64,000 nucleotides of DNA from Lytechinus pictus. Its lineage: Eukaryota. The position numbers and the translations under genes are program-made. Location of the stretch: positions 23,314,001-23,378,000 of the forward strand of contig NC_087245.1 in the NCBI RefSeq assembly GCF_037042905.1, in the 5' to 3' direction. Below are positions 3,183 to 54,796 of the stretch, piece by piece (positions within the stretch are counted from its first letter, which is position 1; every line of letters starts with the position of its first letter). The notes beneath the pieces were generated by a model that had not been told where the DNA came from, made no database searches, and saw only the letters and a list, made by a program, of their open reading frames with translations.

Positions 3183-3285
3183 TCACGGCGTCTGTAAGTT
3201 TCTTCTCTTTCTTCTCACTACCTTGCATCCACCCGTATCAATCTGACATCTGTTTGTACATCGCAGAGAGCCAATCGTGTCGTAT
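3183..3285 (-). CDS. ColQ-like terminal coding exon
   Basis: (K)[36 protein letters not shown] acceptor, TGA at 3183-3185. Confidence 0.9.
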
Positions 3286-6200
3286 CTGGAGTATGTGGTG
3301 AAGAAAGAGATTAGGATGGATAGATTGATATCATTTGACAGAGGGAAAGATTGGGGAAATTGAGATGAATGCAGTCAGGAAAAATGAGGAAGAGACATGG
3401 AGATTGGTTAACCCTAAATAGACTGGGCTAGTTCACAGACTCTTTATAGGGATCTGATTAAATGTACTTTATGAACATTTCAACATCACATTCATTTTCT
3501 CATAAGAACTGTTTTCTGTATTTATTTAATATTCAACTTTTTTTTTTCAATGGTAATTAATTCATTTTAATTCAAAGGAAAAATAGGGATACATTTATGA
3601 ATTTTGCCTCAAAACACTAATTGAATTAAAATTGTACACAAAGTCACCTTTTTGAGCCATTTTGGGTCTGTATGCACTTACAAAATATTGCGTAATTTCG
3701 GAACTGCGTACCTTGGGATCGCAATTTTGGTCTTTAAAAAAAGTCGAGCGACGTGGTCAAAATTTTTCATGTGGCAGATATATGGCGAAGGGGAGGCTGA
3801 ATCAGCCCCCCCCCCCCCCCGGTCTTCTTAGGGTTAAGAGACAGAGAGAGAAAAAAAAGAAAGAGATAGGAAAAAGTCACCTTGATATTGGCAAATTAAT
3901 AATGCTCAGTGTCGAACAGTTAACACTGACAAACCAATCAGGCGTGGATCCAACTGGATTTATAGACACAATACAATTTCAGGGGCCAAACTGTTTATGC
4001 AAATTAGTCGGCCTCTCAAAATTATTGTATCTAATTTGAATGGATCCGCGCCTGAACCCAGTTATCACACTTCCAATCAGTTCTCTAAGCAAAAGAGACT
4101 TGACTTGGTTAAAAAATTATTGGTACATCATGATTCTAAATGATTGTAAATGTATATATTAGTTTAAGATGTTAACCCTATAGCCATAAGAATGTAATCA
4201 AACTTACTTTGGGAAGAAGTATTGACATGTTTTTCCATCAAAGTCGGTTCCATCACACGCTTCAACACCGCGTTGACGATAGCCATCACCACAGTAGGAT
4301 CGTCTACAATCTAAGCAATCAAAGATATGAGGAGAGTATGAGAGCATGGGAGGAGGAGGTGGGAAGCAGAGAGAGAGATTGGGGAAGGGTAGGTAGGACA
4401 GATATACTTAAAAACTTTTAGAATGGAAAACAGAGGGATTACTAATAATGGACATGGTAATTCTTGAAGCAATGCAGCTTTGCCGAAGTCAGGTCCACCT
4501 CTTTTCGGCAGGAATCCCACACACATCTGTTCATCTTAGACAAGACAATTGGGTTGCAGGAAAAACTGCATAATACCTTTATAGCAGGATTCCTGCAAAA
4601 TGCTTTTGTTGCGTCATGTTTTTTCTTATTTTCGTCAGATAAATTTTGAGGATTACCTATGAAAAGATACTTGTCTGGTTCCAGTGGGCAAGACATATCT
4701 CTGACTTTTGATATCAAGGTGGATGAAACATGTACATCGTATTATCTGGGAAGGGTTTCAGTTTAGAATATAGTATAAGGGGTTGTTCCTTACCAATGCA
4801 GCCATCGTGGATGTCTTCATTCCCGTCATCACATTGTTCACCCGGTTCCATGATTCCGTTGCCGCATTCAACCTCCTGTAACAGATACATAATCGTGAAA
4901 TCGGCCAATATGATTAACTGAATGCCTTTCATACACTTCAAAATCAATAAGCCTGTTCACGGTTGTAAACTGCGCACGAGCAGAAAACGGTCGTTTGAGA
5001 TAAACCATGAAGATGGCTTTCAAATTCACTGACATAGGCATTTGTGATTTGATGATTATTCATGTATTCCTTTCAAAATATTCATTTTATCACATCCAAG
5101 CTGCAGAGTAATAAATAGAGCCTTCATAATCACTGGCAGAGGCGTCGATCCTGGGGGGGGGGGGGGCGATCGCCCCACCAATGAAAATATTGGGGGGGCA
5201 AACATCGTTTTGCCCCCCCCAATAATTCCGGATGTGCAAAAATAAAATTAAGATTGTAATGTTCAGCAAGCGAGATTGAGATACACAACTCGTTTTCTAT
5301 TTCAAATCGTGCTCAAAATGTCCGCTTTTCAGATTGGAATACAAAAGTTTTCATTTCGGTAACAAAAACTCATACTTTTCATGATTAAATAGGTGAATAG
5401 AATGTCCCGTTTTCAGTTCTAACCCTCAAAATAACTCCCGCTTCGATTTGCAATAATCTTTTGTTGGATATATTTTGTTCTTTATAAAAAAAAAACGTCC
5501 ATTAAACTGTCATTTTTTTCAGATCGAAATATCAAAATTTTCAGCTCGCGCTTCGCGCTAGCATCTCTTTGAGCTTTTAGAGAGAGATTTGTTCGTTTAG
5601 ATACCAATCTTAATCATTGGTACCAAAAATGCTTAGAATATCAAGCTTTCAGGTCAGAATATAAAGAAATTTCAGCTTGCTCTCGGCACTCGCATTATCT
5701 GTGTAGTGAGATATGTATCCTCCTCATGAGTTACTATACTGTACAAACAGTCCTAAACAGGTACGCTTTTCCTGTTTTAAGGTCAGTATACTAAAAAATT
5801 TCAGCTCGCGCTTTGCGCTCGCATTAATTTGTTGGTGAGATACCGTACATGTCTGTATCTCAAGAGTCATATATACATATATATAATATGCCTGTGTGTG
5901 GGGGGGGGGGGTGTTTTGTACGATCGAGTGCCTTTGGAACGTTGATTCATGATTTTGCCCCCCCAATCTGAAAAATGGATCGACGCCCCTGATCACTGGT
6001 ATTTGACAGAAGCCTAAACAATAGTTAAATGTGCCAAAGGCAGACAATAAAACAGATTTCCAAACTTTATCCCTGATGTATTCTAGTCACCTGGTCTATA
6101 CAATGCCTTTTGTTCTTAGAATTTGAATACTCTACCGGTAAAGCTTGCGCAACATCTACATTTGAAAATGATAGTGCTTCTCCTAATGAAAAATCACAAA

Positions 6201-9200
6201 GGTCATTTGAGAAAAGTTGATCATGAGCTAACCGTGAACTGGCTTATTGAAAGTCTACTTTAGTGTGGATTTTTGTTGTTGTTGCTAAGGTGAGTATCTG
6301 GTGTTAGGCCTACAACAATATTAAGGGAAATTCAGTTCCACTTCTTCACCCTATAGATTTATCATCAAAGTTAGGACTGGAAGCCCCAAAGGTTAGTCTT
6401 CAAAACCTATATGGGTAAAACCCCAGATGAGAAGTTACCTATAGATTTATCACCAAAGTTAGGACTGGAAGCCCCAAAGGTTAGTCTTAAAAACCTGTAT
6501 GGGTAAACCCCCAGATGAGAAGTTAATCTCTTGGGTTGAGCAGATTGGCAAATTCAGTGATGACCACAATTTATCATGATCTATCTTCTCAGGGTTTGAT
6601 TACAACATCAGGACTGTTCAATTATTGCTCAATAGCACCAACCTGTCCCGGGATCAAGATATCAGTGTCAGAGCCAGAGTCGCCCTTTTCACCCTTCTCT
6701 CCTCTGGGTCCTTGGGGCCCTGGCATCCCCTGACGGCCTGGAGGTCCACGCATTGTCTTTACTTCCTGCAGAAGATCGGAGGATGCCATCAGACAGTTCC
6801 AGTTGGTGTTATCCCGGAAGTAGAGCTTCCTGTCGTCCAGGCGGTAGGCGAGGGCCGCTTCTTCGCTGATGCTGTTCATTGCGTTCTCATCAGGCACAAT
6901 CAAGATGCGCTGAAATGGACAAAAGTGATGATCATCCTTAATGTCATTGACTTCATTACCATACTTTTCATTATATTCACTATTATCATCCTTATAATAT
7001 TGGTATTCACCATCATAACAATGGTCTCATCTCACTTAAGCCATATTACTATACCAGAATTAGCTGAACTTTCATTGTCATTACAATCTTGCAAATTAAG
7101 TCATCAAGCCAGTGTAATATTTTTTATTACTAATACCTCAGTCACATTGGCTCTACAGTGGCCATACAGAGTCGAAAACAGCCGTTTTATTCATTTTTGT
7201 TCAAACCACCTATATGTAGCTGATACAATGTGAAAACAGCTGTTTTCTACTCGCCGTACGGCCGCCGTAGAGCGAATGTGCCTGAGGTATAAGCAATAAA
7301 TTGAAATGGCAATAATTACCCCCTGAGTAACAAAATCTCCCTGGTCTCCTTTTGGACCGGGTGGTCCAGGGGGTCCAGTCAAGCCACGCTTTCCGACACT
7401 TCCTTGTATTCCTGGTGGGCCGCGGGGACCTACGGTACCAGGTTCGCCATTCTGACCTTAAATAGAAAGAAAAGCAATAGAATGTAACGAAAACATCAAG
7501 TTGTTTACAAACGTGTACAATGTATATTTTGAAAACATATAATCTCCATCATTAAAAATATCCATAGCTTTTTTAGTCCCAGAATAGATTGATGAGTTTG
7601 AGAGGTAGAAGTAGAAGAGTCAAAATTTCAAAAAATGCCAAAGGCACCATTTTATAAATTTCTTTGAAAGTGTTACACAGGGGAAACTGACCGGTGCTTC
7701 TCACTAATCAAAACCATGGATTTCACTGAACGACTAGTCAGAGCTGACAATTTAATCAGTGCTGACAACTTTCAGAAAACGCCACCTAGGTTCCAAAAGC
7801 AAAGTCACATAATAATGTTTTCTTTGGTCAAACTTTTACATTACTAACATCTAACATAAAATCTGTATTAGATTATTATGTCCATTATTGTTTGGTTGAT
7901 CATTTATAGAATACACAATGTATATTTTTCTTTGCTGTAAAGTCGATTACAGAAACCCTCATTATTAAAATTGACTCTCATTTCTCACCTATTCCTGGCG
8001 GACCCCGAGGTCCCTGTGGTCCCTGAATACCCATCATTCCCTTCGGTCCCTGTGGCCCTGGCTCACCATCGGATCCAGTACGTCCCTGGTGTAACCAAAC
8101 ATATAAAAGGAAACTTAATGGCAAGAGCATGTTTTAAATTACAGTGTACAAGGAGTTTAAAAGCTAGCTTTATTGTTGAAGTACTCACCAAAATTCATGA
8201 GATTATTACATTGATATTTCATGCACATGTAAGGAGCAGAAAATAAATCAAATAGCCCAGGTCTTGACTGGCTTGTTTGTTGGGTTCTTCAACTGTTAAG
8301 TGCATGTTTTTAACAATAACGATGACATTGGTCTGGAGGTAAGAGTGAAGTGTACACTTATAAATCATCTGCATAACAGTGATAGTTAAGAAATGACATC
8401 TTAAATTCCGTCAAGACCACCCAAGTGGTCATTGTGGTACACCAGAAACGAATTCAACATGATTTCTTTTCAAAATTAATATAGGCAGCTTTAGCCTTTC
8501 AGATGGATATTATTTTAACCACTCCATAACTGTAACATCAACACAAAGGGCTCTCAGATTGTTTAACATAATTGTATGATTGACAGTATCAAAATAAATG
8601 CTGAGGATAAATCGAAAACATTAATTCTCCCATCATCCATGTCTCTCAAGGTGTCATTTGATAGGTTAACAAGTAAAGGCTGAACACAATGACACAGGTG
8701 AAATGTTAGATAGGGAGAGGGGTAGTTGCTTACCCTTCTGCCTGGACTTCCTATTGCTCCTTTTGGTCCTCTTGGTCCTTGCATTCCGACCACACCTGGT
8801 AATCCTATTGGACCCTGTGGAAAATAGAGAAAAAATAGTTTATTACTGTTCTACTTCACTTATCTTCCATGTAGTACTATACTGAAACAAACAGAATGCT
8901 CATTTCCTCCTCCCTCTTCTACTCCTTCTCCTCCCTCCCTCCTCTTCTTCTTCTACCTTCTTTCATGTACTCATCCTTTCTTTTCTTTTTCTAATTTCCC
9001 ACACTCTTTCTGCTACTGTGTCAAAGATGGCATTTTGAGAATACTTTTTTGTTTCTCCCTCATATTCCAAATATACACTTAATTAAAACCAGTGTATCAA
9101 TTTTTGACCACATAGTAGTTAAAGGTCAAGTCCACCCCAGAAAATGTTGATTTGAATCGTTGGAAAAAATATGGATGTAACATAAGAAAGTTATATTTAT

Positions 9201-12200
9201 TTAAAAGTTTCGCTTATTTTTCACACAACAGTTAATTATATGCACAACTCGGTGATATGCAAATGATAAAGTACATGTAGGTGATGTCCCTCACTCACGA
9301 TTTCTTTTTTTTTATTGTTTGAATTAAAGCATATTTCAATTTTTACAGATTTGACAATTAGGACCAACCTGACTGCCATTTAAAAGCAATGGTAATTCCA
9401 CATTTTCAGGGAGGATTAAAACTTTTCTTACATGACAATGAGAAAATATGATTATTTCATATTTCATATACTGGTAATAAAATACTGGTAATAGTGAATG
9501 AGTGATGTCATCAGTCCCCTCATTTGCATACATAGCATTAGGTGGGGGATTCAAAACTTTAACACAGAATTTTGAAACTCATTCAATATGCTTATTTATG
9601 CGCAATTTTCAAAATTCACAAAAAATGCTTCTTTTTTTGTTGACCAATTTTGAATTTTTTGCTTCCATCTAGTAAAGCTTTGAGGTTCACCAAACTTCTA
9701 CATAGAATTTTGAAATTTTTACTAAAACAATTTTTATGCTAATTTATGCATAATATTTATAAAAAAATCACATAAAATTCTTCTTTTGTTGACCGATTTG
9801 GATTTTTTTTCTTTCATCTGGTAGAGCTTCATTAGGTTCACCAAACTTCTACACAGAATTTTGAAATTTGGATTAGAAAATTATTTATGCTAATTTATGC
9901 GAAATTCATAAATCACAGAAAATGCCTCTTCTTTATTTATTGACTGAATTTCAAAATGCTTCTTCGTCATTTCAAGTCTGATTTCGATTATGTTTGCTTT
10001 ATATGGTAGCATTAGGTGGGGGATTCAAAACTTCTACATGAAATTTTCAGTAGAAAATATTTGCTAATTTATGCAAAATTTATTCATAAATCACAGAAAA
10101 TGCCTCTTCTTCTTTATTTGTTGACCAATTTTGATTTTTTTTCTTCCATCTTGTAGAACTTCATGAGGTTCACCAAACTTCTACAAAGAGTTTTGAAATT
10201 TTCAGTAGAAATTTTTTAAATGCTAATTATGCAAAATTTATTCATAAATCACAGAAAATGCCTCTTATTTGTTGACCGATTTGGATTTTTTTCCATCTGG
10301 TAGAGCTGCATGAGGTTCACCAAACTTCTACACAGAATTTTGAAATTTGGATTAGAAAATTATTTATGCTAATTTATGCGAAATTCATAAATCACAGAAA
10401 ATGCCTCTTCTTTATTTATTGACTGAATTTCAAAATGCTTCTTCGTCATTTCAAGTCTGATTTCGATTATGTTTGCTTTATATGGTAGCATTAGGTGGGG
10501 ATTCAAAACTTCTACATGAAATTTTCAGTAGAAAATATTTGCTAATTTATGCAAAATTTATTCATAAATCACAGAAAATGCCTCTTCTTCTTTATTTGTT
10601 GACCAATTTTGATTTTTTTTTTCCATCTTGTAGAACTTCATGAGGTTCACCAAACTTCTACAAAGAGTTTTGAAATTTTCAGTAGAAATTTTTTAAATGC
10701 TAATTATGCAAAATTTATTCATAAATCACAGAAAATGCCTCTTATTTATGACCGATTTTGATTTTTTTTCCATCTGGTAGAGCTGCATGAGGTTCACCAA
10801 AGTTGTACACAAAAATTTGAAATTTTGTCTAGAAAATTATTTATGCTAATATATGCAAAATTTACAAATAAATCACAATAAAATGTTTTTCTCCTTTATT
10901 AGTTGATCAATTTCAATTTTGTTTGCTTTATATGATATCTAGGTGGTGATACAAAATTTCAACACAGAATTTTGAAGTTTGAAGTTGTTCATATATTTTC
11001 AATACTCACAAAAAATACTTATTTATTTGTTGATTGATTTTGATTATTTTTGTTCCATCTGAGAGCTGCATGAGGTTCACCAAGGTTCTACACAGAGTTT
11101 AGAAATTTTGACTCGAAAATTATTTATGCTTAATTTATATGAAATTTATTGAATAATTTTTTTTTCATAGATCACAAAAAATGCTTCTATGTCATTTCTT
11201 CATCAATTTCAATTCTATATCCTCAATTTATGTCACCAATATAATTCACTTACAGTGTCAACTGGGCTGAAATTAAAATTGTGTTAAATTTCGTTGTGAG
11301 ATGCCGGATGAGCTCCACATCATTGATGTGCTAGTTATACAATTTTCAGCGTTAGGCTTGTTGAAGTTTTCTCTTTTTATTCAAATCAACTCTTTTCTTG
11401 GTGTGGAATTTTCCTTCAATTATTCACCTTACACCTTGCCCCCAAATAGTAAAAAAATTACTTAAAAAGTCAGGATAAAGTGCATACTTGTTATACTACT
11501 TTTTAATGCTGCATGTACTCTACCTTATAATAATTAGTATATAATGAAGGACACTAGTACTAACCTCTGGTCCTTGTGGTCCCTGTGCACCGGGCATGCC
11601 GTCTGTCCCATCTAGTCCTCGTTCCCCTGGTTCACCCTATCATTTGATCAAAAAAAAAAATGAGTTACTTGAAACGAGTTCATTACCGCTGCCTTTATTG
11701 AAATTGAAGAAAAGCACTGACATTTAATTCAGTAAGTTCAGAGAAAAACACGACTTGCATGGAAGTCGACCAGCAACAATTGTTGATGGAAATGGACTAC
11801 CACTATCATATTTTCCTCTTTATAACTTCATTTTACAAATGAGCAATCTTAATGTTATACGTTACTGTTATAAGTTTCTTTTATCAAGTGAAAACGTAAA
11901 CAAATTATTTTGATGTATGTGAGATCGTGCATGGCTTCATTTTCCGAACAAGATTGAAACACCAAAATCGACAAAGCAGTTGCAAAGGTATTAAATACCA
12001 TGTAACTTCAATGTATGAAGAGACTGATTATTTGATTTACATTATCATCTCATTCTTCAATTTCATTGCACCTTCAAATTCATTGCACTTTTGGTTTTGG
12101 ATTTCGAAAATTTGATAGTGACCTCCAATAATCATGATTAATTTTATTGAATTTCCTGTTAAGAAGGTGAAGAGAGACATATATTCAAGTAAATCATGAC

Positions 12201-15200
12201 AAGGATTATAAACATTCAAATCAAACAATTAGGTAAAGATGCAATAATTAAATCTATTACCTTTGGTCCTATATCGCCTGTATCTCCTTTTCTCCCTCTC
12301 CTTCCGGGCGGGCCAGGTTCTCCCTGCATACCCTGGAATGAAAGAGTATAAAAGACGTGTCAACAGGAATGCAACAAAAACATCAAAATAGACGAGATTA
12401 CATAATAATACCTTAATTGTTTGTTTTATTTCCGAAATCATAAAAAACACAATATTTACACAATAGCTTACAAAACAATAATAATGATAATATGACACGG
12501 TTGGATAGCCCATTTCTGAGCTGTTGAGCATAACAGCTCTGTTCTTCCATGGGGACAATATATTGTGTATTTTTGAGTTTTGTCAGACGTGTATCAATCA
12601 GATATGATTATTTACGTCTGGGACCGACCTTTAACGTCACCATCCGAAAGACGTGACCAGGGCTCGAACCTCTGCATCAATTTGTAACTTCCCCGCATAG
12701 CTTGGATTACAGGCGCACGCCACAACGCCCAGTTAATAATTATACATAAACAATGGTAGCACAAAACATAAAATACAAAAAAAAAAACTCAATGTAAAAT
12801 GTGGTTACAAATATCCCATAGAGTTATTGTGAAAATCACCCCCCCCCTTAACCCACACATCTAACTGTTGATTACCTTGAAAAATAAGCAAAATGGAATT
12901 ATATGTTCCTAAATCGTAATTTTCATTTCATTTCCTTAAATGTATGGCCAAATCTATGACGGTATTGAATATTTAAGAAGAAAGATCACATTTTCCATCG
13001 CTTGCTTAGTTCGCTTGAAAGTTGTAAAAAAATAAGATATAATGAAAAATAAACAGTGTACCTCTTCGGAATTTCAGCCCTTTAAATTTTATGCCATTGA
13101 TTACCCACACTGCTAGTTGGGAGAATAGCACATTGCAAAGTTGACAGTATAACTAATATGATTTCTTTGTATGCTCAGGAAACGCAAGATCTAGTTATCC
13201 TTGCAATGTTATTAATTCTTTCCCATTAATCTTCCTATCCATTTCAATCTTAAGGCGACCGCACACCTTACGACTGGTCTGCGACCCGATTTTGGAACAA
13301 ATCGCATTTTGCTCATTTTCTGAAGATGTGAATGGAACATATCATTCTTTTTAAGGTTAAAATTAATTGAAATAATAATATTATAACAATTTTGAAGGAT
13401 TGCAAGTCCTTATTTTGGTGTAAAGTCCAAATTAGTTTCAAATCGTAGCCAATCGTACGACTGCTATGACGTCATTACGACTAGATATTAAATTCGCTTT
13501 TATTCTAAGAAGGATGATAGCATAGCCACGAATTTGATCATAGGTATTCGTACGATGATTTAGAACATTACACAGTAAGATTTTCCAAGTCTCAATATTA
13601 GCATCAAATTCTATTACATTTTATTCTGAAATCGGGTCGCAGACCAGTCGTAAGGTGTGCGGTGGCCTTTAGGCATCAGTGATTCGTTTGCCTTTAAGAC
13701 TCGAAACTAGCGTTTACGATGCTCAAAGTGACATTGTTACTACTATGATGTAAACATTTTCGATCATGAAAAAAAAATCGAGAACGGAGGGAGCAGTCAC
13801 AACTTGTAAAAAAATTCCGCAAAGAAAACTCATCGAAATCATGGAAATTCGGGTTTGTATATATTTTTTTAAGTGCAAGGCTCTTAAAACTGTTTATTAT
13901 CCATTCGTATGACTTCCTCAAATGATATTTTCAGTTGTCCGTTCATTCATTCGATACAATTAGCCTTGGCAGAGATTGACAAGATCATAAACACTTGTCA
14001 ACTTGCTTATGCCAAAGTCGTTTCATCTGTGGCGCAATTTGCCGTTTTTAAAAGAAATTTAAAATCACACAACCCTGCAAAAAGACGAAAATACTAGACT
14101 ATCATGGGTATAAGAAAGAGGTTCTCCGTAATTTGTAACAGCTTGTATATTATCAGGATATTGCCTCAGTTTCGGCAGGCAACAAAAGAGATGAGTGCCA
14201 CCAAGGAGTTATAAGAAATGGAGAACCATTCAACACATTCCCTTTAAAAGTAACTTTGATGTCACAAGGATGAACTATGTTAGACATGTTTGGATTTTTC
14301 TCGCAGATTGTAGACAAAAGATTCCTACCTAAGTACAGACTCGCTGGCTAAATACAATAGGAAATGTGCTTTTGAAATGATTATCGATTTTCGCTGCCTC
14401 GATCTGTTTGGATATGACGAGCAGACACGTTGCTAACTTTTACGGGGGAAAGCAAAATAAATGTTGCAATATCTATTGAAATATGATTTGATGTTACTCT
14501 ACCGGCCGCATGTGATCGCAACTATGGCACATAACATTACAAATATATTCCCTCAAACTAATCTTTATTAGGTGATCTGTCAATCGACAGATCAACTATT
14601 AATTTCGTACGAATTTTCTTTTTTATTTATATCTTTTTATTTTCCCGCCCTTTTCTTGTTGCCATAAAATCTCAAAATCTACATCATCAATTATCTTCAA
14701 AATATCATCAGATATGGGGACTTATCCTGTCATCTGTATGAAACAAGTTCAAGGTCAAAAGGTCATCGTGACGTCATCTAGACGCCATTTTGCAAATTCC
14801 CATTATCAATCATATCTTCATTATCAATTATCAAAAATTAACCATATATACATCACATTAACTTCAAGTCAAGGGTCAACTGTCCATGTCATCAAAGGTC
14901 ATGTAAAGGTCACGACGTGCGCGTACGCGCGCGTCAAAATTTTAAAATGCTCAAAATCACTTTTTGACCAAAGTAGAGTATGAATCAGGTCATTTTAAGC
15001 ATTTCAAAAATTTGCGCGCGCACACGGTTACGCGCGCGTTCTCGCGCGTAACGGCACTATGCAACATAGGATCGCCATTTTTTTCATATCAATGCACCGA
15101 CAATATAATTCTGAACAATTTGATACCTTGATCAACCTTCTACGACAAGTAATAACGGAATTAGCCTCCATCAAAGTTTACAGCACGTGCGCGCGCGCGC

Positions 15201-18200
15201 ACTAACCATAGACAATATATGTGCAAAAACATGCCTATACAAAATTCATTATAGCTCTTCAGGAAGTCCGTTGACCCCCAATTTCTTTTTCATATTCGAA
15301 TAGAATATGGATGGGAGATATGATTTCATGTCACATTTGACCCAAAATTTTATCATGACGTCATCAAAATGGCGTCGGAACACAAAATTCCCATTTTGCT
15401 ACTTATGACGTCATCATAATTATGCACATTTGACTCTTAACTCCATAAATATTGGCCAATTTTTGCTCAGTTTTCAATATGTTGTAGCTGAGGACATACT
15501 CTTTCTAATTTGATGGCTTTATTTACATTTAAAGGAACGAATCATCCTGAAAAATTGCAAGTTATAGAGACATGTCATTTTCGCTCATTTTGTGTGCAAT
15601 CTCTATGGGAAATGACTTTTTCTCAAAACTGGATTTTACATTCCTCTATTTCGTGAGCCATATCTCCATTTCTTTTTGTCGGTTTTCTCTGAGCTTGGAG
15701 TATGTTGTAGCTGAGATTGTAAGCTATCGCCAACGTTGTCTCCATTTTCCGATCAGATGCCGGGATCATGCCCGTATTTCACTTGCAAAATTGGATTTGA
15801 GATCCTCTTAATTTGCTTATGTGTAAAGTCTATGGGAAATAGTGCTTATGTGTAAAGTCTATGGGAAATAGTGTAGCTCAGTTGATAAGGCATCAGACTT
15901 GCGTGCTTAGGGTCCAGGGTTCGAGCCCAGGGGTGAACATGAGATTTTTTTTTTTTTTAACATATCACAAATGGTTCTTTATGACCATTACAATGTATAT
16001 AAAATAAAACATTGGACAATAAAAGATATCAAAATCCCTTTTAATGTACAATGTTCCTGTACAATATGTGTATGACCTACACTTTATCACACAACTTTTT
16101 CATTTCCCTCTTTTTCAAGAGTATTCAACACGTTCTTTTCATAAGAGAAGTTCAGTTTTCATCCTGATGATCATATTGATCTCAATAAACATGCTGATTG
16201 TCTTCCTCATCATGAAATCAGAGACAGATCACCTAATTCGTCCTCATGACGAATTAAAATTCTAGTTTTTATTCATTTTTGTCATGTAGAAGTGTTTGGA
16301 TATTGCTAACATTGACTTAAGAATCGTCAAATTCTAATACATTTATAAAAGTATTACCATATCGGGTTACCATACCATAATTTTGCCCAGTTTCAGGCCA
16401 TAGTAATGCTTTGAGATATATTTCGTCATGTGTTTAAAATTTAAATTTTGTAATCAAATAAAACTAGAAATATTCCCAATTATCTTCCTTTTTTACACAA
16501 AGCGATTTTTACTTTTCCCCATGAAACTGGCGGCATCAAAGGTAAACACCAAACAATGCACCTGTGTATTATTTTGTTTTCCTTTAAAAATTTGAAGCTA
16601 TGTACATGAATTAATTTGCATTTCGTGGTCACTCCATCTCTAAAAACTCCTTCGATTCATAATCAAATCCAGTCATTTAATTTGGATTCTGTACTGTATA
16701 TTCGAAAGTCAGTCAAGTGAGCCAACATCCCTCACTTTAAAATTTTTACCCCACTCTTTCTCTGCATGTCTGTATGTCTACCTGTCTGTTTTTGGATGAG
16801 GGATGGTGCCCCCAGCCTCTCTATTCTCCCTTTCTCCATCTTCCTCCCTTTTCTTTCTCTTCGTCTGTCCTTCTCCCAGATTTGTCCGGTCCCTCCACTG
16901 CTTAAGTTCATCGGCATTAGTCTCCATGTATTTATCTCTTATCGTTTCATTCATTGTGCTTTGTAAATGCAATCATGGTGCTTAACGAACGCCTCTTAAA
17001 CAACAGTTAAGAAAAGAGGAACATAGACTTATCCAAAACACCATCAGAATTGAAGCAATCACTGAAATATTTTTTACATACCACGCATGACATGGTACAC
17101 ACGCCATCATCCGTGGTAGTCGGCATGGTAGTCGTCGTCGTATCTGGATCTGTCGGTGGAGGTGGCGGTGGTGGTGATGGTGGGGCTGGAGGCATCATGG
17201 TTGTTGGAATGAACTGTTTTATAAAATCAGAAGACAGGTTTATTGATTAATCACCCACGATAAATCGCACTTTAATCGAATAGAAGTCATATTAAAGTAG
17301 TGATAAAAACAAGTGGTTTCATTTTAGTTTTCACATAATGATACAACTGCAAAAATAGTGGTGTGTTGAGAATGGGGGAGGGGGCAAAAGTAATAATTGG
17401 ATCACGAAATGATGGTGATGATAATAATAACAATAATAGTAAAAATGATAAACTATTTAATAATAATAATGATAATAACAATAATAATAATAAAAATTAT
17501 AATAATATCAACAATAATAATAATAATTATAATAATAATAATAATCAATGATAATAATAATAATAATAATAGAATCACCCTGGAGAGAGAGGGAGGCAGA
17601 AAGATGGACAGTTGTCAGAGACAACGAAATTGTTACTTATTGTTATACTTGTACTTGTACTAATCAAAGCATTATATTACTTACTGTGTCGTTATGAAAA
17701 TCAAAACCAAGGACTCCGGAAGGGGGAGGAGGTGGTATAATTGGTGGTGGTGGTAATCTCATTATCAAGATGCTAGAGCCAGAAGAAGATACAGTGGTCA
17801 TTCCTTCTCCTTCCCCTGGTGTCGGTGGAGGAGTTGGATTTGCTTTGTGCCTTGAGTTTGGTCCTGAGCATGGGTGAATATGAGTTCTCATTATATCAAC
17901 GTGTGAATGATTTTGTCAGACCCACTGCCACTTTCTACTTCGACAGTCAGCATCAGTGAAGACTGCGACACAGAGTCTTTATTTAGTGTGTCGTCAGTTC
18001 GCTGAAAATTTCCTTTAATCATTTTTATCACGGTCTCTTGATCGCATTCGGGTAAAAATGAATAGTTATAATAATTGAAAATACTGAAGTCCTGTCATGC
18101 TAATTTAATATAGTAGGGAGAGAATAGTCCGATGACCTTCAGCCAAGATTTCAAAATGTAGAGTGTTTTGGAGAACAAACGAATCCAGCAAGAGTGACAT

Positions 18201-20586
18201 ACAAAAAGTAGGGCGCTAACTGTGTGTGGACATGGTAGAATGTGATTTCAGAAAGCGGGCAAATTAATTGGAAAATTAAATATTTCGAGTAGGCCTATAC
18301 ATAATTATTTTCCATGACACCGTAGAGCCGCTTTTAGTGATGAAATGTACCCGGAGTCTCTGTAGTTTTGGAAGCAAGTTCTGGAAAATGGAAAAACAGA
18401 TTTGAGTTGAGTGAGAGACTTACCTGGACATCTTGGGCAGCATTTTCCTGGGCTGATAATGGGATTCTCACATGTCACCGGTTTACATGCACTCCTAGCC
18501 TTTAAAGAACATTCAGATTCTCCATCCTGTAAGAAAAGTATTCAATTTAAGTATTGCCAACAGAGCCTACTGGAATGCAGAACATGAATTTAAAAGATGG
18601 TCATTATCCGTACGGTAACAATCAGAGAAGATAATGCCTCGTGATGTGGAAGGGGCTTGACTTCAGCGCTTTCCACCGCTTTACATTCTCTCTTATTGTT
18701 TAAAGAACATTAAGATTCACCACCCTGTAAGAAAATATCCAACGTAGGAAAGTATTTCAAGCAGATCTGTTCTTGGGCCTGCTTGAATGCAGATCATGAA
18801 TGTTTACAGAAGAAGGTCGTTATCTGTACGGGAAAGATCAAAGAAGCTATGCGTCGTCATGTAAAATGGGTTTGACTTGCGCGCTTTTACAACTAGGGGA
18901 GATCTTTTCGGATCCAAAAGGGTGACACATTTTCGCAAGCAAAGTTTGACAATAGCCAAAAAAAGTCCTCATTTGTGTATGAGCGCCATATTTACAATAT
19001 TTCCCGTGACTCTCCAGGGGGGGGGGGGCTCACTTGTGTATAAAGGACATATTTACATTAAAAATATTTACTACGACTCTCAAGGGTGGGGGGGGGGGGC
19101 ACGGGCCAGAAATGCCCCCCTCTGGATCCGCCTGGGTCTAAATTACATTTCATTTTTTTTTTAAAGTCTAATCTCTTTTTTGTTTTCTCTTGTAAAAATA
19201 CAACCCATCGGTTGGAAGTGGGTGTGATACTACGTTAAGAAAAAAACCAACATTCGCACCAAGATGACACCATTGAATGAACATGAATTTTACCAAGATC
19301 GGAGGAGGAGGAGTTCTACTTTGGTGATTTTCAACAATTAAAGTTGTAATACTGCATACTTAAAGCATAATTCACAAGTTTTGTGATTTTAAAAGTATAA
19401 CAAAGCTTTGAAATTAGAATTCATCACAAAATGAATTTCTTGACGATTTCACCACTTTCCAGGCATCTTTTTATCAAAAAGAACAACTTCGTCGTGTTCG
19501 TTAGAACCATGAACATACCTTACATCTACATCTGATACAAGGATCGACCTGTGATTTGTATCTAGCTCCCTCTTGATAATCTTTCCCTTCGAAGTGGCAC
19601 TGAGCTGTTTGAAATGATTTAAATAAAACACATGTAATCGTGACATGGCGAACATGAAAGCTTTCAGATAAAAACCATATAGCGATAACATGATTATTCA
19701 TCTTTCAAGTATCCAAAAGACTTGGGCATACGTCTACGGTGAAATTGGGGCTAGGATTTCATCGCTGACCCGGGTAGACCTTACAGGTGAGGCAGACATG
19801 GTAGAGGGGAGGGCTAAAGCCCCTCCCCCAAATACTCGCTTAAATTAATTACTAAGTAAAATTACCTATAACTTTGGATATAAAGACATAAAATAATAAT
19901 TACAAAGTTATTCAACAAAGGCATACAATCTGAGCTAGAGCTGTTTTCACCGACCATTTTGGAATACAAGAAAAAAATTTACCCTCATTAGTGCAAAATA
20001 ACGCTAGAAATCTAAGACATCTACTGTAAGTCCCTTTTGTACAGATGTAGGATCGGGGAAAGGTGGTTAAAGCTCGAACTACCGAATCTCACTTAGATTA
20101 CAATTTTGTAAAATCATTGTTTGGGTAGAAATATACCTATCGTTTTGGAAATATACCTATCGTTATAGTCTTATAGATGTATTTTTTTAATATTCAGGCT
20201 GGTAGAACAAAATTAGTCTTTTATACATATCATTATGTTAAAAGTGACCCTCTTTCTCTCTTATTTTTGCCTCGCTTGGTCTATTTTCTCGAAATCATTT
20301 AATCACAAAACTGGCCGGGCCCGTTTCATAAAGAGTAACAACTGTTGTATCTTTGCCATTATGGCAGCTACCATGGCAACAGGGCTTAGCAGCCAATCAA
20401 AATAAAGGTTACCATGGTAGTTGCCATAATGGCAAAGTTACAACAGTTGCAACTCTTTATGAAACGGGTCCCTGGTATAGATATCTTACCTGGCGATGAA
20501 GTATTTTCTATTTGAGATCGGCTGATCGATATACAGAACACAGCTATAGATAAGACTTGAAGCAGAATTCTCGCCCTTCCTTCCAT
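3183..20586 (-). CDS. COLQ: ColQ-like (acetylcholinesterase collagenic tail-like) secreted collagen with N-terminal vWC domain; 14 coding exons, 536 aa
   Basis: Manual model complement(join(3183..3285,4208..4310,4794..4875,6643..6909,7320..7456,7989..8085,8734..8814,11565..11636,12261..12332,17082..17213,17685..17863,18424..18526,19519..19604,20490..20586)). All introns are GT-AG, phases are compatible, and the 1611 nt are open. C-terminal [34 protein letters not shown] and [79 protein letters not shown] match vertebrate ColQ as I recall it ([111 protein letters not shown]). The symbol denotes homology; orthology is unverified. Confidence 0.85.
3412..3833. mobile_element. piggyBac-like MITE
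   Basis: TTAA TSD; termini CCCTAAATAGACTGGG / CCCGGTCTTCTTAGGG. Confidence 0.7.
3939..4054. mobile_element. Short hAT-like MITE
   Basis: TIRs CAGGCGTGGATCCA / TGGATCCGCGCCTG; degenerate 8-bp TSD AAACCAAT/AACCCAGT. Confidence 0.55.
4208..4310 (-). CDS. ColQ-like coding exon 13: Cys-rich domain (103 nt)
   Basis: (D)[42 protein letters not shown] boundaries, phase 1 to 2. Confidence 0.92.
4794..4875 (-). CDS. ColQ-like coding exon 12: Cys-rich domain, CGNG...E.CDDGN repeat
   Basis: [35 protein letters not shown] boundaries, phase 0 to 1. Confidence 0.92.
5137..5991. mobile_element. hAT-type non-autonomous element
   Basis: Perfect 8-bp TSD ATCACTGG (5129-5136, 5992-5999); TIRs CAGAGGCGTCGATCC / GGATCGACGCCCCTG; internal repeats of AAATTTCAGCTCGCGCT. 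Confidence 0.88.
6349..6524. repeat. 88-bp tandem duplication (2 copies)
   Basis: CCTATAGATTTATCAYCAAAGTTAGGACTGGAAGCCCCAAAGG...CAGATGAGAAGTT occurs twice, nearly identical. Confidence 0.9.
6643..6909 (-). CDS. ColQ-like coding exon 11: ColQ-type non-collagenous (trimerization-like) region plus short second collagen run
   Basis: [95 protein letters not shown] acceptor, GTTGGT donor. Confidence 0.88.
7134..7289. mobile_element. MITE (family shared with 55123..55443 and a fragment near 61390-61445)
   Basis: TIRs TACCTCAGTCACATT / AATGTGCCTGAGGTA; internal GAAAACAGCCGTTTT inverted motif. Confidence 0.75.
7320..7456 (-). CDS. ColQ-like coding exon 10: end of main collagen domain
   Basis: (G)[48 protein letters not shown] acceptor, GTAATT donor, phase 1 to 0. 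Confidence 0.88.
7989..8085 (-). CDS. ColQ-like coding exon 9: collagen (97 nt)
   Basis: [40 protein letters not shown] boundaries, phase 0 to 1. Confidence 0.9.
8734..8814 (-). CDS. ColQ-like coding exon 8: collagen (81 nt)
   Basis: [35 protein letters not shown] boundaries. Confidence 0.92.
9123..11418. mobile_element. Kolobok-like MITE interrupted by a nested tandem-repeat-rich insertion
   Basis: Left TTAA|AGGTCAAGTCCACCCCAGAAAA and degenerate right end TTTTCTTGGTGTGGAATTTTCCTT; unrelated repeat about 9530-11335 inside. Confidence 0.55.
9530..11335 (+). repeat. Array of diverged ~120-130-bp units including a near-perfect 479-bp duplication
   Basis: GAGGTTCACCAAACTTCTACACAGAATTTTGAAA...AAATCACAGAAAATGCCTCTT recurs many times; the block near 9841 is repeated near 10320. 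Confidence 0.85.
11565..11636 (-). CDS. ColQ-like coding exon 7: collagen (72 nt)
   Basis: [32 protein letters not shown] boundaries. Confidence 0.92.
12261..12332 (-). CDS. ColQ-like coding exon 6: collagen Gly-X-Y (72 nt)
   Basis: [32 protein letters not shown] boundaries, phase 0 to 0. Confidence 0.92.
12560..12733 (-). mobile_element. Putative SINE with 7SL-RNA(Alu-domain)-like head
   Basis: Minus strand reads ACTGGGCGTTGTGGCGTGCGCCTGTAATCCAAGCTA (cf. 7SL/Alu 5' end GCCGGGCGCGGTGGCGCGTGCCTGTAGTCCCAGCTA), then box-B-like GGTTCGAGCCC, then CGTCTTTCGGATGGTGACGTTAAAGG and an A-rich end. Confidence 0.65.
13253..13668. mobile_element. PIF/Harbinger-like MITE
   Basis: About 40-bp TIRs AGGCGACCGCACACCTTACGACTGGTCTGCGACCCGATTT; TTA TSD on both sides. 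Confidence 0.85.
14565..15960 (+). repeat. Probable interspersed repeat (HINE/DINE-like) ending in a tRNA-like segment
   Basis: Hairpin TGATCTGTC-AATC-GACAGATCA (14573-14594) followed by a T-rich tract, CpG-rich GCGCGCGC motifs, a 29-bp tandem duplication (about 15813-15871) and a tRNA-like box A/B plus poly-T. Boundaries are approximate. Confidence 0.4.
15870..15958 (+). pseudogene. tRNA-derived sequence (pseudo-tRNA or SINE head)
   Basis: TAGCTCAGTTGATAAG (box A) and GGTTCGAGCCC (box B) followed by a T-run. Anticodon and acceptor stems do not pair. Confidence 0.55.
17082..17213 (-). CDS. ColQ-like coding exon 5: polyproline/Thr-rich stalk and CxxxC
   Basis: [47 protein letters not shown] acceptor, GTATGT donor, phase 0 to 0. 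Confidence 0.75.
17420..17572. repeat. (AAT)n imperfect microsatellite
   Basis: Direct inspection. Confidence 0.95.
17685..17863 (-). CDS. ColQ-like coding exon 4: proline-rich, PRAD-like motif
   Basis: (G)[65 protein letters not shown] donor, phase 0. The CTCAG acceptor at 17864-17866 was chosen for phase-1 compatibility and is weaker. Confidence 0.65.
18424..18526 (-). CDS. ColQ-like coding exon 3: vWC domain, second half
   Basis: [34 protein letters not shown] with a CCxxC motif; TTTTCTTACAG acceptor, GTAAGT donor, phase 0 to 1. Confidence 0.88.
19519..19604 (-). CDS. ColQ-like coding exon 2: vWC domain, first half
   Basis: (A)[28 protein letters not shown] with a CxxCxC motif; CAG acceptor, GTATG donor, phase 1 to 0. 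Confidence 0.85.
20317..20471. mobile_element. Palindromic ~155-bp Harbinger-like MITE
   Basis: GGGCCCGTTTCATAAAGAG...CTCTTTATGAAACGGGTCC long TIRs; same family as 49246..49401 in opposite orientation. Confidence 0.85.
20490..20586 (-). CDS. ColQ-like coding exon 1: signal peptide
   Basis: [32 protein letters not shown] has a basic n-region and hydrophobic core. Phase-1 GTAAG donor. A CAG acceptor at 20606-20608 after a pyrimidine tract implies an upstream UTR exon. Confidence 0.8.
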
Positions 20587-23287
20587 CGCCCAGACATTGA
20601 TAAACCTGCGTGTGTATATAAATACAGAAGAAGAGAAAGAACGGATAGAGTGAGAGAGTATGAAAAAGAAAGCAGAAAAAATGACAAGATAGAGGGAGAG
20701 AGAGAAAAAGAGAGAAGGGGAGAGAATGATAACAATAGAGTGGGATGTAGAGAGAAACAAGGGAAGGCAGAGATGGGGGAAAGAGAGAGAAAGGGGGGGG
20801 GGGTAGCATTAGCACTGATTCAAACTCAGAGAGATTCAACATGAGCAATGGGATTAGGGTGTCTATTAGTCTACACACTTAAGTTCATTTCTTTTCGAAT
20901 ATTCCGCAACTTGATTTCTGATAATATAAACATTGAAAATAAGGAACATTCTGTAGATGAGACTCACAATTTCCTTGTCCTACTCCTTTCAATTTTCTAT
21001 CCTTCTTTCTATCGATTCGCTCTATTTCTCTTGTTTTCTCCTTCTCTTGCTCTCTGCCTTGCTATGCTTTCCCCTCTTCCCGTTCCCTGTCTTCTCGCTT
21101 GCCCATCCAGCAAAGAGAGCAAAGACCATTCTCATGTAGTTAGTGAAGAGACAGGACAAGAGCTGAGGAGGATATAGAATAACGGAAGGAGGCTATTCAT
21201 GATCGGGGCTGGTGGCTCTTCAATGACTGCAACAGCCCTGATCAAACTTGTGAGAAAATATATTGAGCTATCACAAAGGCGTCACGCGTCTGAAACGCTT
21301 TCGAGAAGTTCCTTCGACGTCTCGCCAGTCTCCTTGGTCTCTAGCGATAGACGTCGCAGGATGATGAAGATGAAACATGTGAATTCACACGAACTGTCTT
21401 GGACTTACAGTCCCTGTGCGCAAGAAGGAGCTCCATATTCAAGGTTAATCTAAAGAAAGCTTCGTCAATTGTTTGCTTTTATGAGCGATGCCATTCCAGC
21501 ATGCTTGTATCTTCCGCGTCTCCCAGGGTTCCGTCTAAACACGAAAGAAAGCTCCCGATTGCGACATATATTCACTCTCGAAAAAATTACAGGCTGCAAC
21601 TGGTGGAAACGTCGACGGGAAACCATGGAGAATTGTTGGGGTCCATCCGAAAAGTCTGTGGGTCATAATCTGTCTTCAATCTCGAACAACCGCACATAGT
21701 CTCCTGGAGACGTCTCGCGGAGATGTCTCGAAGTTATCGTAGAAACAGCTTCACGAAAAGCGGTAATCCTTGTCGTGGTCACAAACTAGTTTTCAGATCA
21801 TGGTACCCCTCCCCCCCCCCTCTCTCTATCTTCTTGTTGGTTTGATATGTCTGTGATTGATTTGTTTAGATCTTGGATGATATTGCAAGACGGAAGTGTT
21901 CCTGTTTATCAGAGATTGGCCTAGCACAAACAGAGACGACTCAAGACGCATGTGATTGGGTTGTCAGGTTGTTGCGAAAAGGGGGCAAATGCGCCTATCA
22001 AAAAAGATGTATTTTGTTTCAAAAGTATAACAAATAATTATTGCTGCATGCTGCTTTATAATACGTTCCTAATTCATTGGTCAGTACAATTTGCCAGAAT
22101 GTCGACACGAACGAAATCATTAAAACAGTAATTAAATGTAGTGGTTATTTTACATATTCGATTTCAAACTGCTGCACTTATTTAGATTACTCTCTGTGTT
22201 CATTGCGTCGTAATCTTTTACACAGCTACATGCGGAGGCAGGTGTGGTATAACTTCACAATTGCAGGGGTGATTGGCAAGGGAGAATACATCATACTTTT
22301 GTGACATCAAATGAAACATAACTGATACATGAATAACATGAACGGCATACCGAGGAACTGCACCCCTGTCTGCAGGAACGCTGCATACGACTGTATGAGA
22401 TGAAAAATAATAATACTGCCAATAGAAGACTATAAATCTATAAGCCATTGTAGAATATTTTACTTTCTCTCTTATATTGTGTAGTATTTCATCGGAATAA
22501 AAAGTTGATGCTGTTATCAACTTCAGAATTGTTCAGCGTTATAGCTTCATTACCCATCGTTGTTCCGAGGTTTCCGCACTTCTTTTTTGTCTCGATAAAA
22601 CAGTGTGATGAATACATTTACCAAATCAATGGAAGGTGTGTACCATATAATTAGAACCAAAAAATACAGACATACTGAAACAAGCTAAGAAAGTGTTTCG
22701 GATGAGGGATGGAGTAAACTTCCTCTTTTCACCATCGGACGATAGGGAGGGGTGAGGAATAACTTCCACACACCCTTTGCCAACGGATGATTTAGGGTGA
22801 GTACATGAACCTTTCCCCCATCCCCTTCACCCGTGGCTACGCCCTGTCGATGCTAGCGATAGATTTCAAGTATCCTCCACGTGGGCTTGAGGCCAATTAG
22901 CTGAGGAGTGTGGAGAGAAATATCGACCGGTGTAAATTGAATCAAGAAATCAATATCCAAAGGATGCAGTCTCTCTCAAAACCCAGCAGTCGTGCAAGCA
23001 CGGCAGCAATATCTCTCCTACCATCTCCAATTATTCCTGACTGTGGGATTTCTTGCACGCGACTCCGCCACCTACCATTATCATCCCCATCTCCTAATTC
23101 CAACCCTCTTTTCAGTTTGATCAATTGATCCTTTGATATTTGTTAAGAATTAGAATTATCATATACCATTATCCTAACCCTTTTCGGCGTTTAATTTCAT
23201 TATATCATTCTCTGTTTCTGCATTCGTATAGGTCTGTCTCTCTTTCTGTCACTGTCTCCTTGCCCTCATCCCCCTTTCGTCCTCCTG

Positions 23288-44149: not shown

Positions 44150-46600
44150 ATTCTAAAGAAACACGCTGTAAATGAATATGATGTCGACTAGAGTATTGAA
44201 ATTATTCCTTTCATGACCATTGAATTGTTTTTAGAGGGAATAGAATAGACATTTCCCGTCAAATATTTTTTAAAGACAAGCGAAAATACTTTCTATCAGT
44301 AACTTTTAAACAGTATCTCAAAGGAAAATAAACAGTCACTTTTAGGTGACTTTAATATGAATGTTCTTCGCTACAAAATAAATTCTTCTGTTAATGATTT
44401 TGTTGATACTCTGGCTACTTTTTCCTTTTATCCACAAAGAGTAAAACTAACAATTACTCTTACAACAACGACCGCATTAGACAACATTATATACAATATC
44501 CCAGAAAAGGATACTAGTATTAAGTCAGGTATACTCATTGTAAATATCAGTGACCACCTATCTCCATTCATCATTTTACCTCGAAATAATATATTCTAAT
44601 AATAGCATCAGTTGTTAACAAGGACATGAAAGCCGAAAGTATACTGATGCAAATTTATATCTATTCTGTAACAAACTACAAGCTACTAACTGGTAATTTT
44701 TAGAAAACGTAAAAGATGCAAACAAGCAATTTGAACTGTTTGGCATATGTAATCAAAACTTCATGATAGTTTCCCTATAAAAAAAAAAAAAAACAATACT
44801 GCAAAAGAGATAAACCTTTGCTCACGAAATCATTGAAGAAAGTGTGCAAAAAGAAGAATTCATTGTTTAAAAATATGTAATAAATACTACCGTATCTAAT
44901 AATATGAATTATGAATAAAGAGATGAATGAAATAAGATATGCATAGCGTAAATACTTCGATGACAAATTTCAGCATTTGAAAATAATCATAAAGCCACTT
45001 GAAAATTCATCAATGAAATACTAAATAGAAAAGCCAAAAGTCAGAATATTAAGAACATAAACTGCGATGGAAATTGTACCAGTAATGCTCCTACAATTGC
45101 TGAATCCTTTAATACAATTTTCACTTCTGTTAGCAGTACCGTACACAATAAAATTGCGGAAAATGCCGATTGTATGCATGAGCACATGTAATACTTTAAA
45201 GTTAACTATGTAAACTGAATGTTTTTCACTGATATTACAGGAAATGATATTTTTGAAGACTGTATTGAAATTACAGTTAAAAGTCTTGGATATGACGGCT
45301 TTAATACTAAACTAATTAAGTCATCTATCCATTTTATTATTCGCCCCTGTATGTTATTATAAAAAAAATCCTTAGAATCGGGTGTCTTCCCGATAGCCTT
45401 AAAACTGCAAGGGTTACTCTTGTTTAAAAAAAAGTGGCGACACAGATATCTTGAATAATAATCGCCCTATTTCGGTATTGAGTGTATTTAGTAAATATTT
45501 GAGAAAAAAATTGCTTGTGAAAAATTAATGTCATTTTAAAGAAATGTTGATATTTCATCTCCGAAGTAATATGGATTTAGACAAGCTAGGATAGGAAACA
45601 AATTTAGTATTCGTTGAGCTTGTTGACAAATAAGCAAAATCTTTTGAACAGAATAAAACAACTTTTGGGATATTGTTTGACGTTTCGAAGGCCTTCAATT
45701 GCATGGACAATCGAATTCTACTTAATGAATTATATTCTCATGATTCTTATGACATTAGAGGATTAGGTCTTAACTGGTTTAAACGTTATTTATCAAACCG
45801 AAAACATTATGTTGCAAATGGAAATAGTAAGCCTTCACCAAAGACTATTATTACCGGAATTCCTCAAGGTTCAATACTAGGGTCAGTGTTATTTCTAATA
45901 TATATCAACGACCTTCGAAATGTTAGTACAGATACATCAGTGATATAGTTTGCTGATGACACTAGTTTCTTCCTGTCAGGCAAAAACATTCAATTAATAA
46001 AAAATAACTTACAGAATGAGTTGAAAATTTAAGAATAATGTTTTTTAATGTAATAATTACAAATCAATGCTTAAAAAAGACTTCTTACGTTATATTCCAC
46101 AGAAAAGGCAAATCCATCAACTGTGATTATGCAATTAATGATAAATAACGAGATAAACAAGAAAATGCTGTGAAATTTCTTGGCATATTGATAGACTCAC
46201 AATTAACTTGGAAAGATCATGTCAGCTGTATTTCAGAGAAAAATAAATATCAAGATTTACTGGAGCATTATACAGAGTAAGCTTAGGGATCTCCTTCCAT
46301 TGAGGATCCTTGTTAATTTATATTATTCGATGATTTTCTCGCATCTTACTTATGGTATAACTGTATGGGGACAAGGTCATAGATAACTTTTCCAAAGATT
46401 TTTCTAACTTCAAAAACAGTCTATCCGCATTATAACAAACTCAAATTATTATGCTCACTCCGAACCATTATCTAAAAATAACCCTCCCAATTATCCCTTT
46501 GAATGACCTATAAGTTCCACATTGTATTCTATTATACATAATGTACTCCCTCTCTCATTGAATGAGTATTTCCTCTACAATTATAACATGAATTTATATA
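44150..46600 (+). mobile_element. Decayed non-LTR retrotransposon (CR1-group LINE) ORF2: APE endonuclease plus reverse transcriptase
   Basis: Fragmented motifs in order: GDFNM (about 44345), SDHL (about 44550), RPISVL (about 45462), YGFR, DVSKAFN, GIPQGSILG, FADDT (about 45949), KFLGI, YGITVWG, LQKQSIRIIT. Many stops and frameshifts. Confidence 0.9.
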
Positions 46601-50067: not shown

Positions 50068-50423
50068 TCAATGGCAACGATTGCTCATATTGACAGCTTG
50101 CAAGAGGAGAGGAAAGTACTTCATTTTCCCCGGTCCTAAGACATCAGATACAAGTCTGACAACATCTTCCGTGGTTCCGTCAACAGAGCTTCCACAAGCA
50201 GTGTGAAGTTCCTTGCCCTCTGCGGATGACAAGATGTTGTACGCCACGGATGACCTTTCCGTGCCGAGGCGACGCTCAAGGTATATCTTCAAGAGTTCGA
50301 ATTTCCCGCGAAGGTCACAGGTCATCTCGCCAGGCTTCTCCGTTAGAGCATGAAGGAGCTCGGCAATCTCGAAGTCTTGCTTTAACACCATGTCACCGGC
50401 ATGTGTGCGGTCCAGTCTTCTAC
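50068..50423 (-). CDS. NEK-like kinase terminal exon, C-terminal helical domain
   Basis: FELLKIYLERRLGTERSSVAYNIL...VSDVLGPGKMKYFPLLLQAV resembles the NEK1-type C-terminus (LEELRLHLEQEMGFEKF...VQNILG, recalled). Stop at 50068-50070. Confidence 0.8.

Positions 50424-54763: not shown

Positions 54764-54796
<33 letters not shown>

Follow-up and report, generated by a model that had tools for sequence, protein, structure and literature searches.

A vWC module in a predicted sea urchin ColQ gene: structure, distribution and possible function

We analysed a 64,000-nucleotide stretch of the genome of the sea urchin Lytechinus pictus (the window; contig NC_087245.1 of RefSeq assembly GCF_037042905.1, forward-strand positions 23,314,001 to 23,378,000). 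Its minus strand carries a predicted gene for ColQ, the collagenic tail peptide of acetylcholinesterase (AChE) that holds the enzyme in place at vertebrate synapses, in which two exons encode a vWC domain ahead of the PRAD-like polyproline motif. On balance, we lean towards reading this gene as a sea urchin ColQ into which the vWC module was inserted once, the product being a secreted trimer that would tether cholinesterase and whose vWC heads would provide extra protein contacts rather than act as traps for bone morphogenetic proteins (BMPs).

The vWC module in its gene

Exons 2 and 3 encode ten cysteines (residues 35, 55, 58, 60, 67, 75, 80, 90, 91 and 94) and contain both the CxxCxC and the CCxxC motif; the introns are of phase 1 before exon 2, phase 0 between exons 2 and 3, and phase 1 after exon 3. 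An earlier note on this DNA had described a ten-cysteine domain with these motifs on two exons, forming a symmetrical module flanked by phase-1 introns, and its description of cysteines, motifs and flanking phases was correct throughout. The Pfam VWC (PF00093) scan that it had proposed covered residues 35-94 of the near-identical RefSeq protein and the entire profile (1-57 of 57) with 30.2 bits (E 5.6e-7), against a curated cut-off of 27.6 bits. All ten cysteines are present in 11 of 12 ambulacrarian rows, the exception being a crinoid model whose start is cut off. The closest solved vWC relatives are those of NELL, chordin, collagen IIA and Crossveinless-2, which differ little in E value (1.5e-6 to 4e-3), and an Atlas structure model of the domain aligns with chordin-family vWCs at template modelling (TM) scores of 0.68-0.86. 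Atlas feature scores for the donor class of the vWC were at most 0.80 and did not pick out a single family. Searches of the PDB gave no match for exon 2 alone and only collagen-helix matches (47 rows) for the whole protein. The two-exon module is confirmed as a true vWC domain.

The spliced model joins 14 coding exons, from 20586 to 3183 on the minus strand, into a single open frame of 536 amino acids, and all 13 introns are of the GT-AG type. The modelled protein is colinear with Lytechinus variegatus XP_041473506.1, with 527 of 536 residues identical and nine substitutions. RefSeq isoform X1 is longer by 11 residues, which derive partly from a more upstream exon that is unplaced in the window. 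The domains follow one another in the order signal peptide (predicted from a hydrophobic stretch in exon 1), vWC, linker, PRAD-like polyproline, second Pro/Thr-rich exon, collagen, trimerisation domain, short second collagen run and distal Cys-rich domain, distributed over the exons as follows (lengths in nucleotides, nt).

Exon 1, 20490..20605, minus strand: short 5' part, ATG at 20586, signal peptide; phase 1 at its end
Exon 2, 19519..19604, minus strand: 86 nt, phase 1 to 0; vWC cysteines 1-4, CxxCxC
Exon 3, 18424..18526, minus strand: 103 nt, phase 0 to 1; vWC cysteines 5-10, CCxxC
Exon 4, 17685..17863, minus strand: 179 nt, phase 1 to 0; linker, then PRAD-like polyproline motif lacking the vertebrate Cys-Cys
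Exon 5, 17082..17213, minus strand: second Pro-rich run, Thr-rich stretch, cysteine pair ahead of the collagen
Exon 6, 12261..12332, minus strand: collagen, first basic (heparin-site-like) cluster
Exon 7, 11565..11636, minus strand: collagen
Exon 8, 8734..8814, minus strand: collagen; the second basic cluster straddles exons 8 and 9
Exon 9, 7989..8085, minus strand: collagen
Exon 10, 7320..7456, minus strand: end of the main collagen domain
Exon 11, 6643..6909, minus strand: ColQ proximal C-terminal (trimerisation) domain and second collagen run of nine triplets
Exon 12, 4794..4875, minus strand: start of the distal Cys-rich C-terminal domain (DUF4215-like)
Exon 13, 4208..4310, minus strand: distal C-terminal domain; phase 2 at its end
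Exon 14, 3183..3285, minus strand: end of the distal domain, basic tail, stop codon

The earlier note had placed the vWC domain on a ColQ scaffold, and the C-terminal search, a tree of the C-terminal domains (described below) and the last intron agree with it. The C-terminal 187 amino acids, used as query, gave 358 matches; the best 120 of these 358, on which the figures below rest, comprised 12 ambulacrarian rows followed by 106 named vertebrate proteins, mostly ColQ, and two unnamed ones. The last intron is of phase 2, lies within Lys503 and apparently aligns with the end of human COLQ exon 16, which we infer from variant numbers in passages of PMC10671321 to end in phase 2, six residues past Cys427. 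Together, the search, the tree and the gene structure support the gene as a ColQ orthologue. It shares with vertebrate ColQ the signal peptide, a PRAD-like polyproline, about 50 Gly-X-Y triplets, two basic clusters, the trimerisation and distal domains and, apparently, the position of the last intron, with 35% identity to bird ColQ over 376 aligned columns (E 9e-46). In contrast to vertebrate ColQ, the sea urchin protein has the vWC, the second Pro/Thr-rich exon, the second collagen run and a basic C-terminal tail, and lacks Cys-Cys before the PRAD.

The PRAD-like polyproline occupies residues 133-143 and aligns with the vertebrate PRAD. The main collagen domain has 36+13 Gly-X-Y triplets, with basic clusters, recognised as sequence motifs, at residues 209 and 272, and both the proximal trimerisation domain and the distal Cys-rich C-terminal domain are present. 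A profile of the trimerisation domain found no relative among solved structures, returning two chance matches. Mean identity over the 12 ambulacrarian rows was 69% in the PRAD window, the highest value measured, 64% in the distal domain, 56% in the trimerisation domain and 14% in the linker. The RefSeq name of XP_041473506.1, 'collagen alpha-1(III) chain-like', is misleading, and a fibrillar collagen was rejected because the protein has no COLFI domain. Like procollagen IIA and the fibrillar N-propeptides (vWC profile match at E 7e-5 to 8e-5), it carries a single vWC with the ten-cysteine pattern between signal peptide and collagen helix; unlike procollagen IIA, it has a short helix, a ColQ C-terminus and no fibrillar C-propeptide.

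Other parts of the protein vary among lineages. Exon 5 (17082-17213) encodes a second polyproline run after the PRAD in echinoderms, possibly a second WAT-binding site, and its cysteine pair ahead of the collagen is common to amphioxus. The second collagen run (8-10 triplets; exon 11, 6643-6753) lies between the trimerisation and distal domains in 10 of 10 echinoderm rows and is absent from hemichordate, chordate and spiralian rows, as would fit a second, echinoderm-level insertion. The basic, furin-site-like C-terminal run in exon 14 (3183-3225) recurs in echinoids, asteroids and the ophiuroid; vertebrate ColQ stops earlier.

Could the vWC exons instead form a small separate gene, joined to ColQ by an artefact of gene prediction? 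The exon 4 acceptor at 17863, the RefSeq choice, is indeed weak, scoring -1.1 against a matrix derived from the acceptors of this gene; however, a better-scoring in-frame acceptor lies at 17815, and no signal peptide is encoded in exon 4. The vWC-ColQ join is predicted from independent annotations in 12 named species (three echinoids, two holothuroids, one ophiuroid, three asteroids, one crinoid and two enteropneust hemichordates). Moreover, four Logan contigs of 2562-3176 nt (a Holothuria cluster; library type unstated) each hold a full 539-540-residue vWC-ColQ open reading frame, which is unbroken over this short length and therefore as expected of spliced mRNA. The indirect evidence that the vWC exons belong to the ColQ gene thus appears strong, and we regard a separate gene as extremely improbable. 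Further candidate acceptors for exon 4, at 18001 and 17962, were rejected because of in-frame stops.

At 18674-18888 there is a degenerate tandem duplicate (84% over 62 nt) of the boundary between intron 2 and exon 3, taking in the last part of the intron and the first part of the vWC exon. It lies about 200 nt upstream of the true exon and retains a good-looking acceptor together with an in-frame stop.

Distribution and history of the module

The fusion is found in all five echinoderm classes and in hemichordates. The searches described here, along the lines of the domain-architecture search that the earlier note had suggested, recovered it in these two groups, with the chordate and spiralian ColQ proteins examined lacking the vWC. 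Pfam VWC matched all 13 ambulacrarian rows scanned, 12 of them above the cut-off and the truncated crinoid model just under it at 27.5 bits, compared with 0 of 16 chordate and spiralian ColQ rows, and it was absent from the 108 non-ambulacrarian rows among the best 120 of 358, in line with the earlier statement that vertebrate ColQ has no vWC. We also scored 161 full-length-like proteins with a vWC profile built from five echinoderm rows: 20 exceeded 20 bits, all of them ambulacrarian, and the highest score among the other 141 was 4.4 bits. In most amphioxus and spiralian rows a hydrophobic N-terminus runs to the PRAD with no Cys-rich block between them, so that the absence of the vWC does not merely reflect a lost 5' end, although a few models look incomplete. 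The amphioxus and spiralian ColQ-like proteins (XP_078701098.1, XP_013382092.1, CAH1781745.1, KAI0226482.1) resemble the sea urchin protein in their PRAD-like motif without Cys-Cys, their collagen and their ColQ C-terminus; they differ in lacking the vWC and, in spiralians, in much shorter helices of 13-35 triplets.

ColQ-like genes have been noted in invertebrate chordates. A profile of the trimerisation domain retrieved 157 proteins among 1.84 billion representatives, and a second profile, with 8000 candidates scored, together with cluster look-ups found ColQ-like proteins in amphioxus (several isoforms), hagfish, lamprey, chimaera, lungfish and bichir. Spiralian examples came from four annelids, Lingula and the nemertean Tubulanus, so that ColQ predates the protostome-deuterostome split. 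These limited searches, among them the best 120 of 358, brought up no named ColQ from a tunicate, ecdysozoan, mollusc, cnidarian or xenacoelomorph, and with this scope the blank says little about true absence. For Saccoglossus, the record is incomplete and gives no information on the vWC.

A tree of the C-terminal domains from 29 chosen rows, leaving out vWC and collagen and unrooted, with no outgroup, grouped the chordates (93/81), the spiralians with unnamed rows (99/95) and the 12 vWC-bearing rows (94/89, not starred), and follows the species tree. Given this three-group tree and the restriction of the vWC to ambulacrarian rows, a single gain on the Ambulacraria stem is the simplest history; the two-exon module would probably have entered between the signal-peptide and PRAD exons once, in the ancestor of echinoderms and hemichordates. 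The earlier note had proposed that exon shuffling added the vWC to this ColQ. Gain of a module fits well, but it is not confined to this particular gene or to sea urchins. Its other suggestion, that vertebrates lost the domain, does not suffice alone, since amphioxus and spiralian ColQ also lack the vWC and further losses would be needed.

A broader form of loss supposes that the last common ancestor of bilaterians already had a ColQ with the vWC, and that the domain later disappeared, either in a single event in a clade of Chordata+Protostomia or in two separate ones. Because the three-way tree is unrooted, the number of changes does not distinguish gain from loss here, and clean deletion of a phase 1-1 module is as feasible as clean insertion. 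Deuterostome monophyly is disputed and a Chordata+Protostomia topology is discussed in passages of PMC7978419; under that topology, one loss would be as parsimonious as one gain. Under monophyletic Deuterostomia or Xenambulacraria+Protostomia, however, two losses are set against one gain, and none of the 141 full-length-like non-ambulacrarian rows holds a vWC. We consider an ancestral vWC improbable and continue to prefer a single ambulacrarian gain.

The insertion site may correspond to an existing boundary. Alternative first exons of vertebrate ColQ (three rows) converge about 20 residues before the PRAD, where two other models diverge, which indicates an exon junction in vertebrate ColQ at the place of the vWC module. 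We take the vertebrate intron at this place to be of phase 1; no paper giving human COLQ intron 1 was found.

Lungfish and bichirs also have a divergent ColQ-like protein, possibly a second paralogue, which groups with hagfish ColQ with weak support. Many unnamed single-exon fragments carry a divergent trimerisation-like domain with a one-residue insertion, sometimes several per contig.

Cholinesterase anchoring and the vWC heads

In vertebrate ColQ, four WAT peptides surround the PRAD, the proximal C-terminal domain trimerises the chains, and two heparin sites together with the distal domain anchor the complex, as described in parts of PMC10671321 and PMC1285061. By analogy, the sea urchin chains would trimerise through the proximal C-terminal domain, bind four WAT (T) peptides around each PRAD and attach to the matrix through the two basic clusters and the distal domain, so forming a secreted collagen trimer that may tether cholinesterase tetramers to the matrix. 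Because WAT helices run antiparallel to the PRAD, the vWC would lie past the WAT bundle and away from the collagen stalk, a geometry that could give a second contact with the matrix or the cell surface. The three vWC heads per trimer are predicted to be extra protein-contact sites and not BMP traps of the Crossveinless type.

Synthetic polyproline can stand in for the PRAD, and polyproline alone binds WAT, according to passages of PMC1285061; for this reason we consider cholinesterase anchoring by the sea urchin ColQ probable. Adjacent cysteines precede the PRAD in 90 of 96 vertebrate rows compared with 0 of 21 invertebrate rows, but since polyproline alone suffices for WAT binding, their absence would mark the invertebrate form without excluding the function. 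Anchoring might nevertheless be a vertebrate use, with the echinoderm protein a short collagen of the matrix that engages other partners through its polyproline and vWC. Consistent with this, besides the missing Cys-Cys, glycosylphosphatidylinositol-anchor (H) peptides are described as widespread in invertebrate AChEs in passages of PMC3045457, and we found no paper on a collagen-tailed AChE in echinoderms. The PRAD spacing (proline run, two residues, proline run), however, hardly changes between urchins and acorn worms, and in annelids it is very close to that of the vertebrate PRAD. We hold that a ColQ without anchoring in echinoderms is possible but unlikely, and retain tethering of cholinesterase in the preferred reading.

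The earlier note had further suggested that the vWC forms a possible BMP/TGF-beta-binding head. This part is unsupported, as such binding is not a general property of vWC domains and the determinants known from Crossveinless-2 are not conserved. Passages of PMC6270503 report that, among the five Crossveinless-2 VWCs, VWC1 binds BMP-2 and the other four do not, and that loss of the clip lowers affinity more than 1000-fold; the CCN3 vWC does not bind BMP-2 according to part of PMC10326224. Mapping the Crossveinless-2 residues by cysteine register (clip: Ile2, Thr3, Gly4 and Thr5 of zebrafish CV2), we found the clip motif in 0 of 11 complete ambulacrarian rows. The Ile27 position holds Ile or Val in 6 of 12 rows and Glu in both sea cucumbers. 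A large hydrophobic residue occupies the Ile21 position in 7 of 12 rows, a loose mapping because the Cys1-Cys3 spacing is 23-24 compared with 20. The Lytechinus protein has Ser50 at the Ile21 position and Ile56 at the Ile27 position. Compared with Crossveinless-2/BMPER VWC1 and the chordin CR domains, the sea urchin vWC shares fold, cysteine register and N-terminal position, but has no conserved clip, partial hydrophobic contacts and one domain per collagen-stalked chain. Non-cysteine identity across rows is only 31% in the vWC versus 59% in the distal domain, which suggests selection for the vWC fold more than for one conserved ligand.

Some features would nonetheless suit a vWC that binds BMP2/4 or another TGF-beta ligand, with the trimer presenting three sites on an anchored stalk and modulating BMP locally. 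The domain is a true vWC by fold, with the best solved relatives and the chordin-family TM scores given above. As in procollagen IIA, a collagen helix lies C-terminal to it, and roughly 10 residues are free ahead of its first cysteine; avidity could come from the three copies. In 12 of 12 rows, Cys3 and Cys5 are spaced as in Crossveinless-2, and 4 of 12, all asterozoan, are hydrophobic at both positions. BMP-binding vWCs of the collagen IIA type are described in part of PMC10326224 as having two hydrophobic clusters, one per subdomain. Set against the non-binding Crossveinless-2 and CCN3 domains, the missing clip, the variable Ile27 position and the serine at the Ile21 position in this protein, these features leave BMP binding rather unlikely in our view. 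Still more doubtful is the wider proposal that the fusion is an undescribed shared-derived ambulacrarian character placing three BMP/TGF-beta-binding heads on a matrix AChE scaffold and thereby coupling cholinergic sites to growth-factor control.

The reading that we prefer, an ambulacrarian ColQ with vWC heads as extra contacts, has its own weak points. The exon joins at this locus are those of a predicted model, the tree has no outgroup and its vWC-bearing branch is not starred, and a Chordata+Protostomia topology would put loss level with gain. For anchoring, the invertebrate rows without Cys-Cys and the widespread H peptides count on the other side, as do, for the heads, the asterozoan rows that keep both hydrophobic positions.

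Other features of the window and significance of the architecture

Intron 7 of the ColQ gene contains a tandem array (9587-10885; 477-nt unit, 2.6 copies, 93% alike, with subunits of about 150 nt), and intron 1 an inverted repeat (20317-20471) with 64-nt arms that are 91% complementary, resembling a miniature inverted-repeat transposable element. Elsewhere in the window, the minus strand carries, at about 50000-60400, exons of a kinase gene (Pfam Pkinase) whose product has a long C-terminal part of low complexity; judged by its motif, the kinase may be NEK-like. Broken reverse-transcriptase frames at 44300-45950 (Pfam RVT_1 at 45634-45945) mark the remnant of a retrotransposon without long terminal repeats.

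The vWC-ColQ architecture is already implicit in automatic annotation. A Strongylocentrotus purpuratus protein with the same domain order (XP_030829956.1 / UniRef100_A0A7M7N1Q1) is named 'acetylcholinesterase collagenic tail peptide' in RefSeq and 'VWFC domain-containing protein' in UniRef. In the open full-text literature we found no paper describing vWC-ColQ, and an earlier mention elsewhere is possible; a 2023 review of the echinoderm matrix names neither ColQ nor acetylcholinesterase in its main text (PMC10381214).

ColQ, which has been studied nearly only at the vertebrate neuromuscular junction, thus emerges as an ancient protein of bilaterians, and exon shuffling has likely remodelled it in one lineage. 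As a yes/no character open to scoring in xenacoelomorphs and cnidarians, the vWC insertion is relevant to two disputed nodes, Xenambulacraria and deuterostome monophyly; its presence in the ColQ of Xenoturbella or an acoel would be a rare genomic change favouring Xenambulacraria. If the vWC does bind BMP, the synaptic matrix would be tied to morphogen control in sea urchins, in which knockdown is routine. If it does not, the sea urchin protein would offer a natural ColQ variant for PRAD tetramer assembly without the cysteines and with a folded domain ahead of the PRAD.

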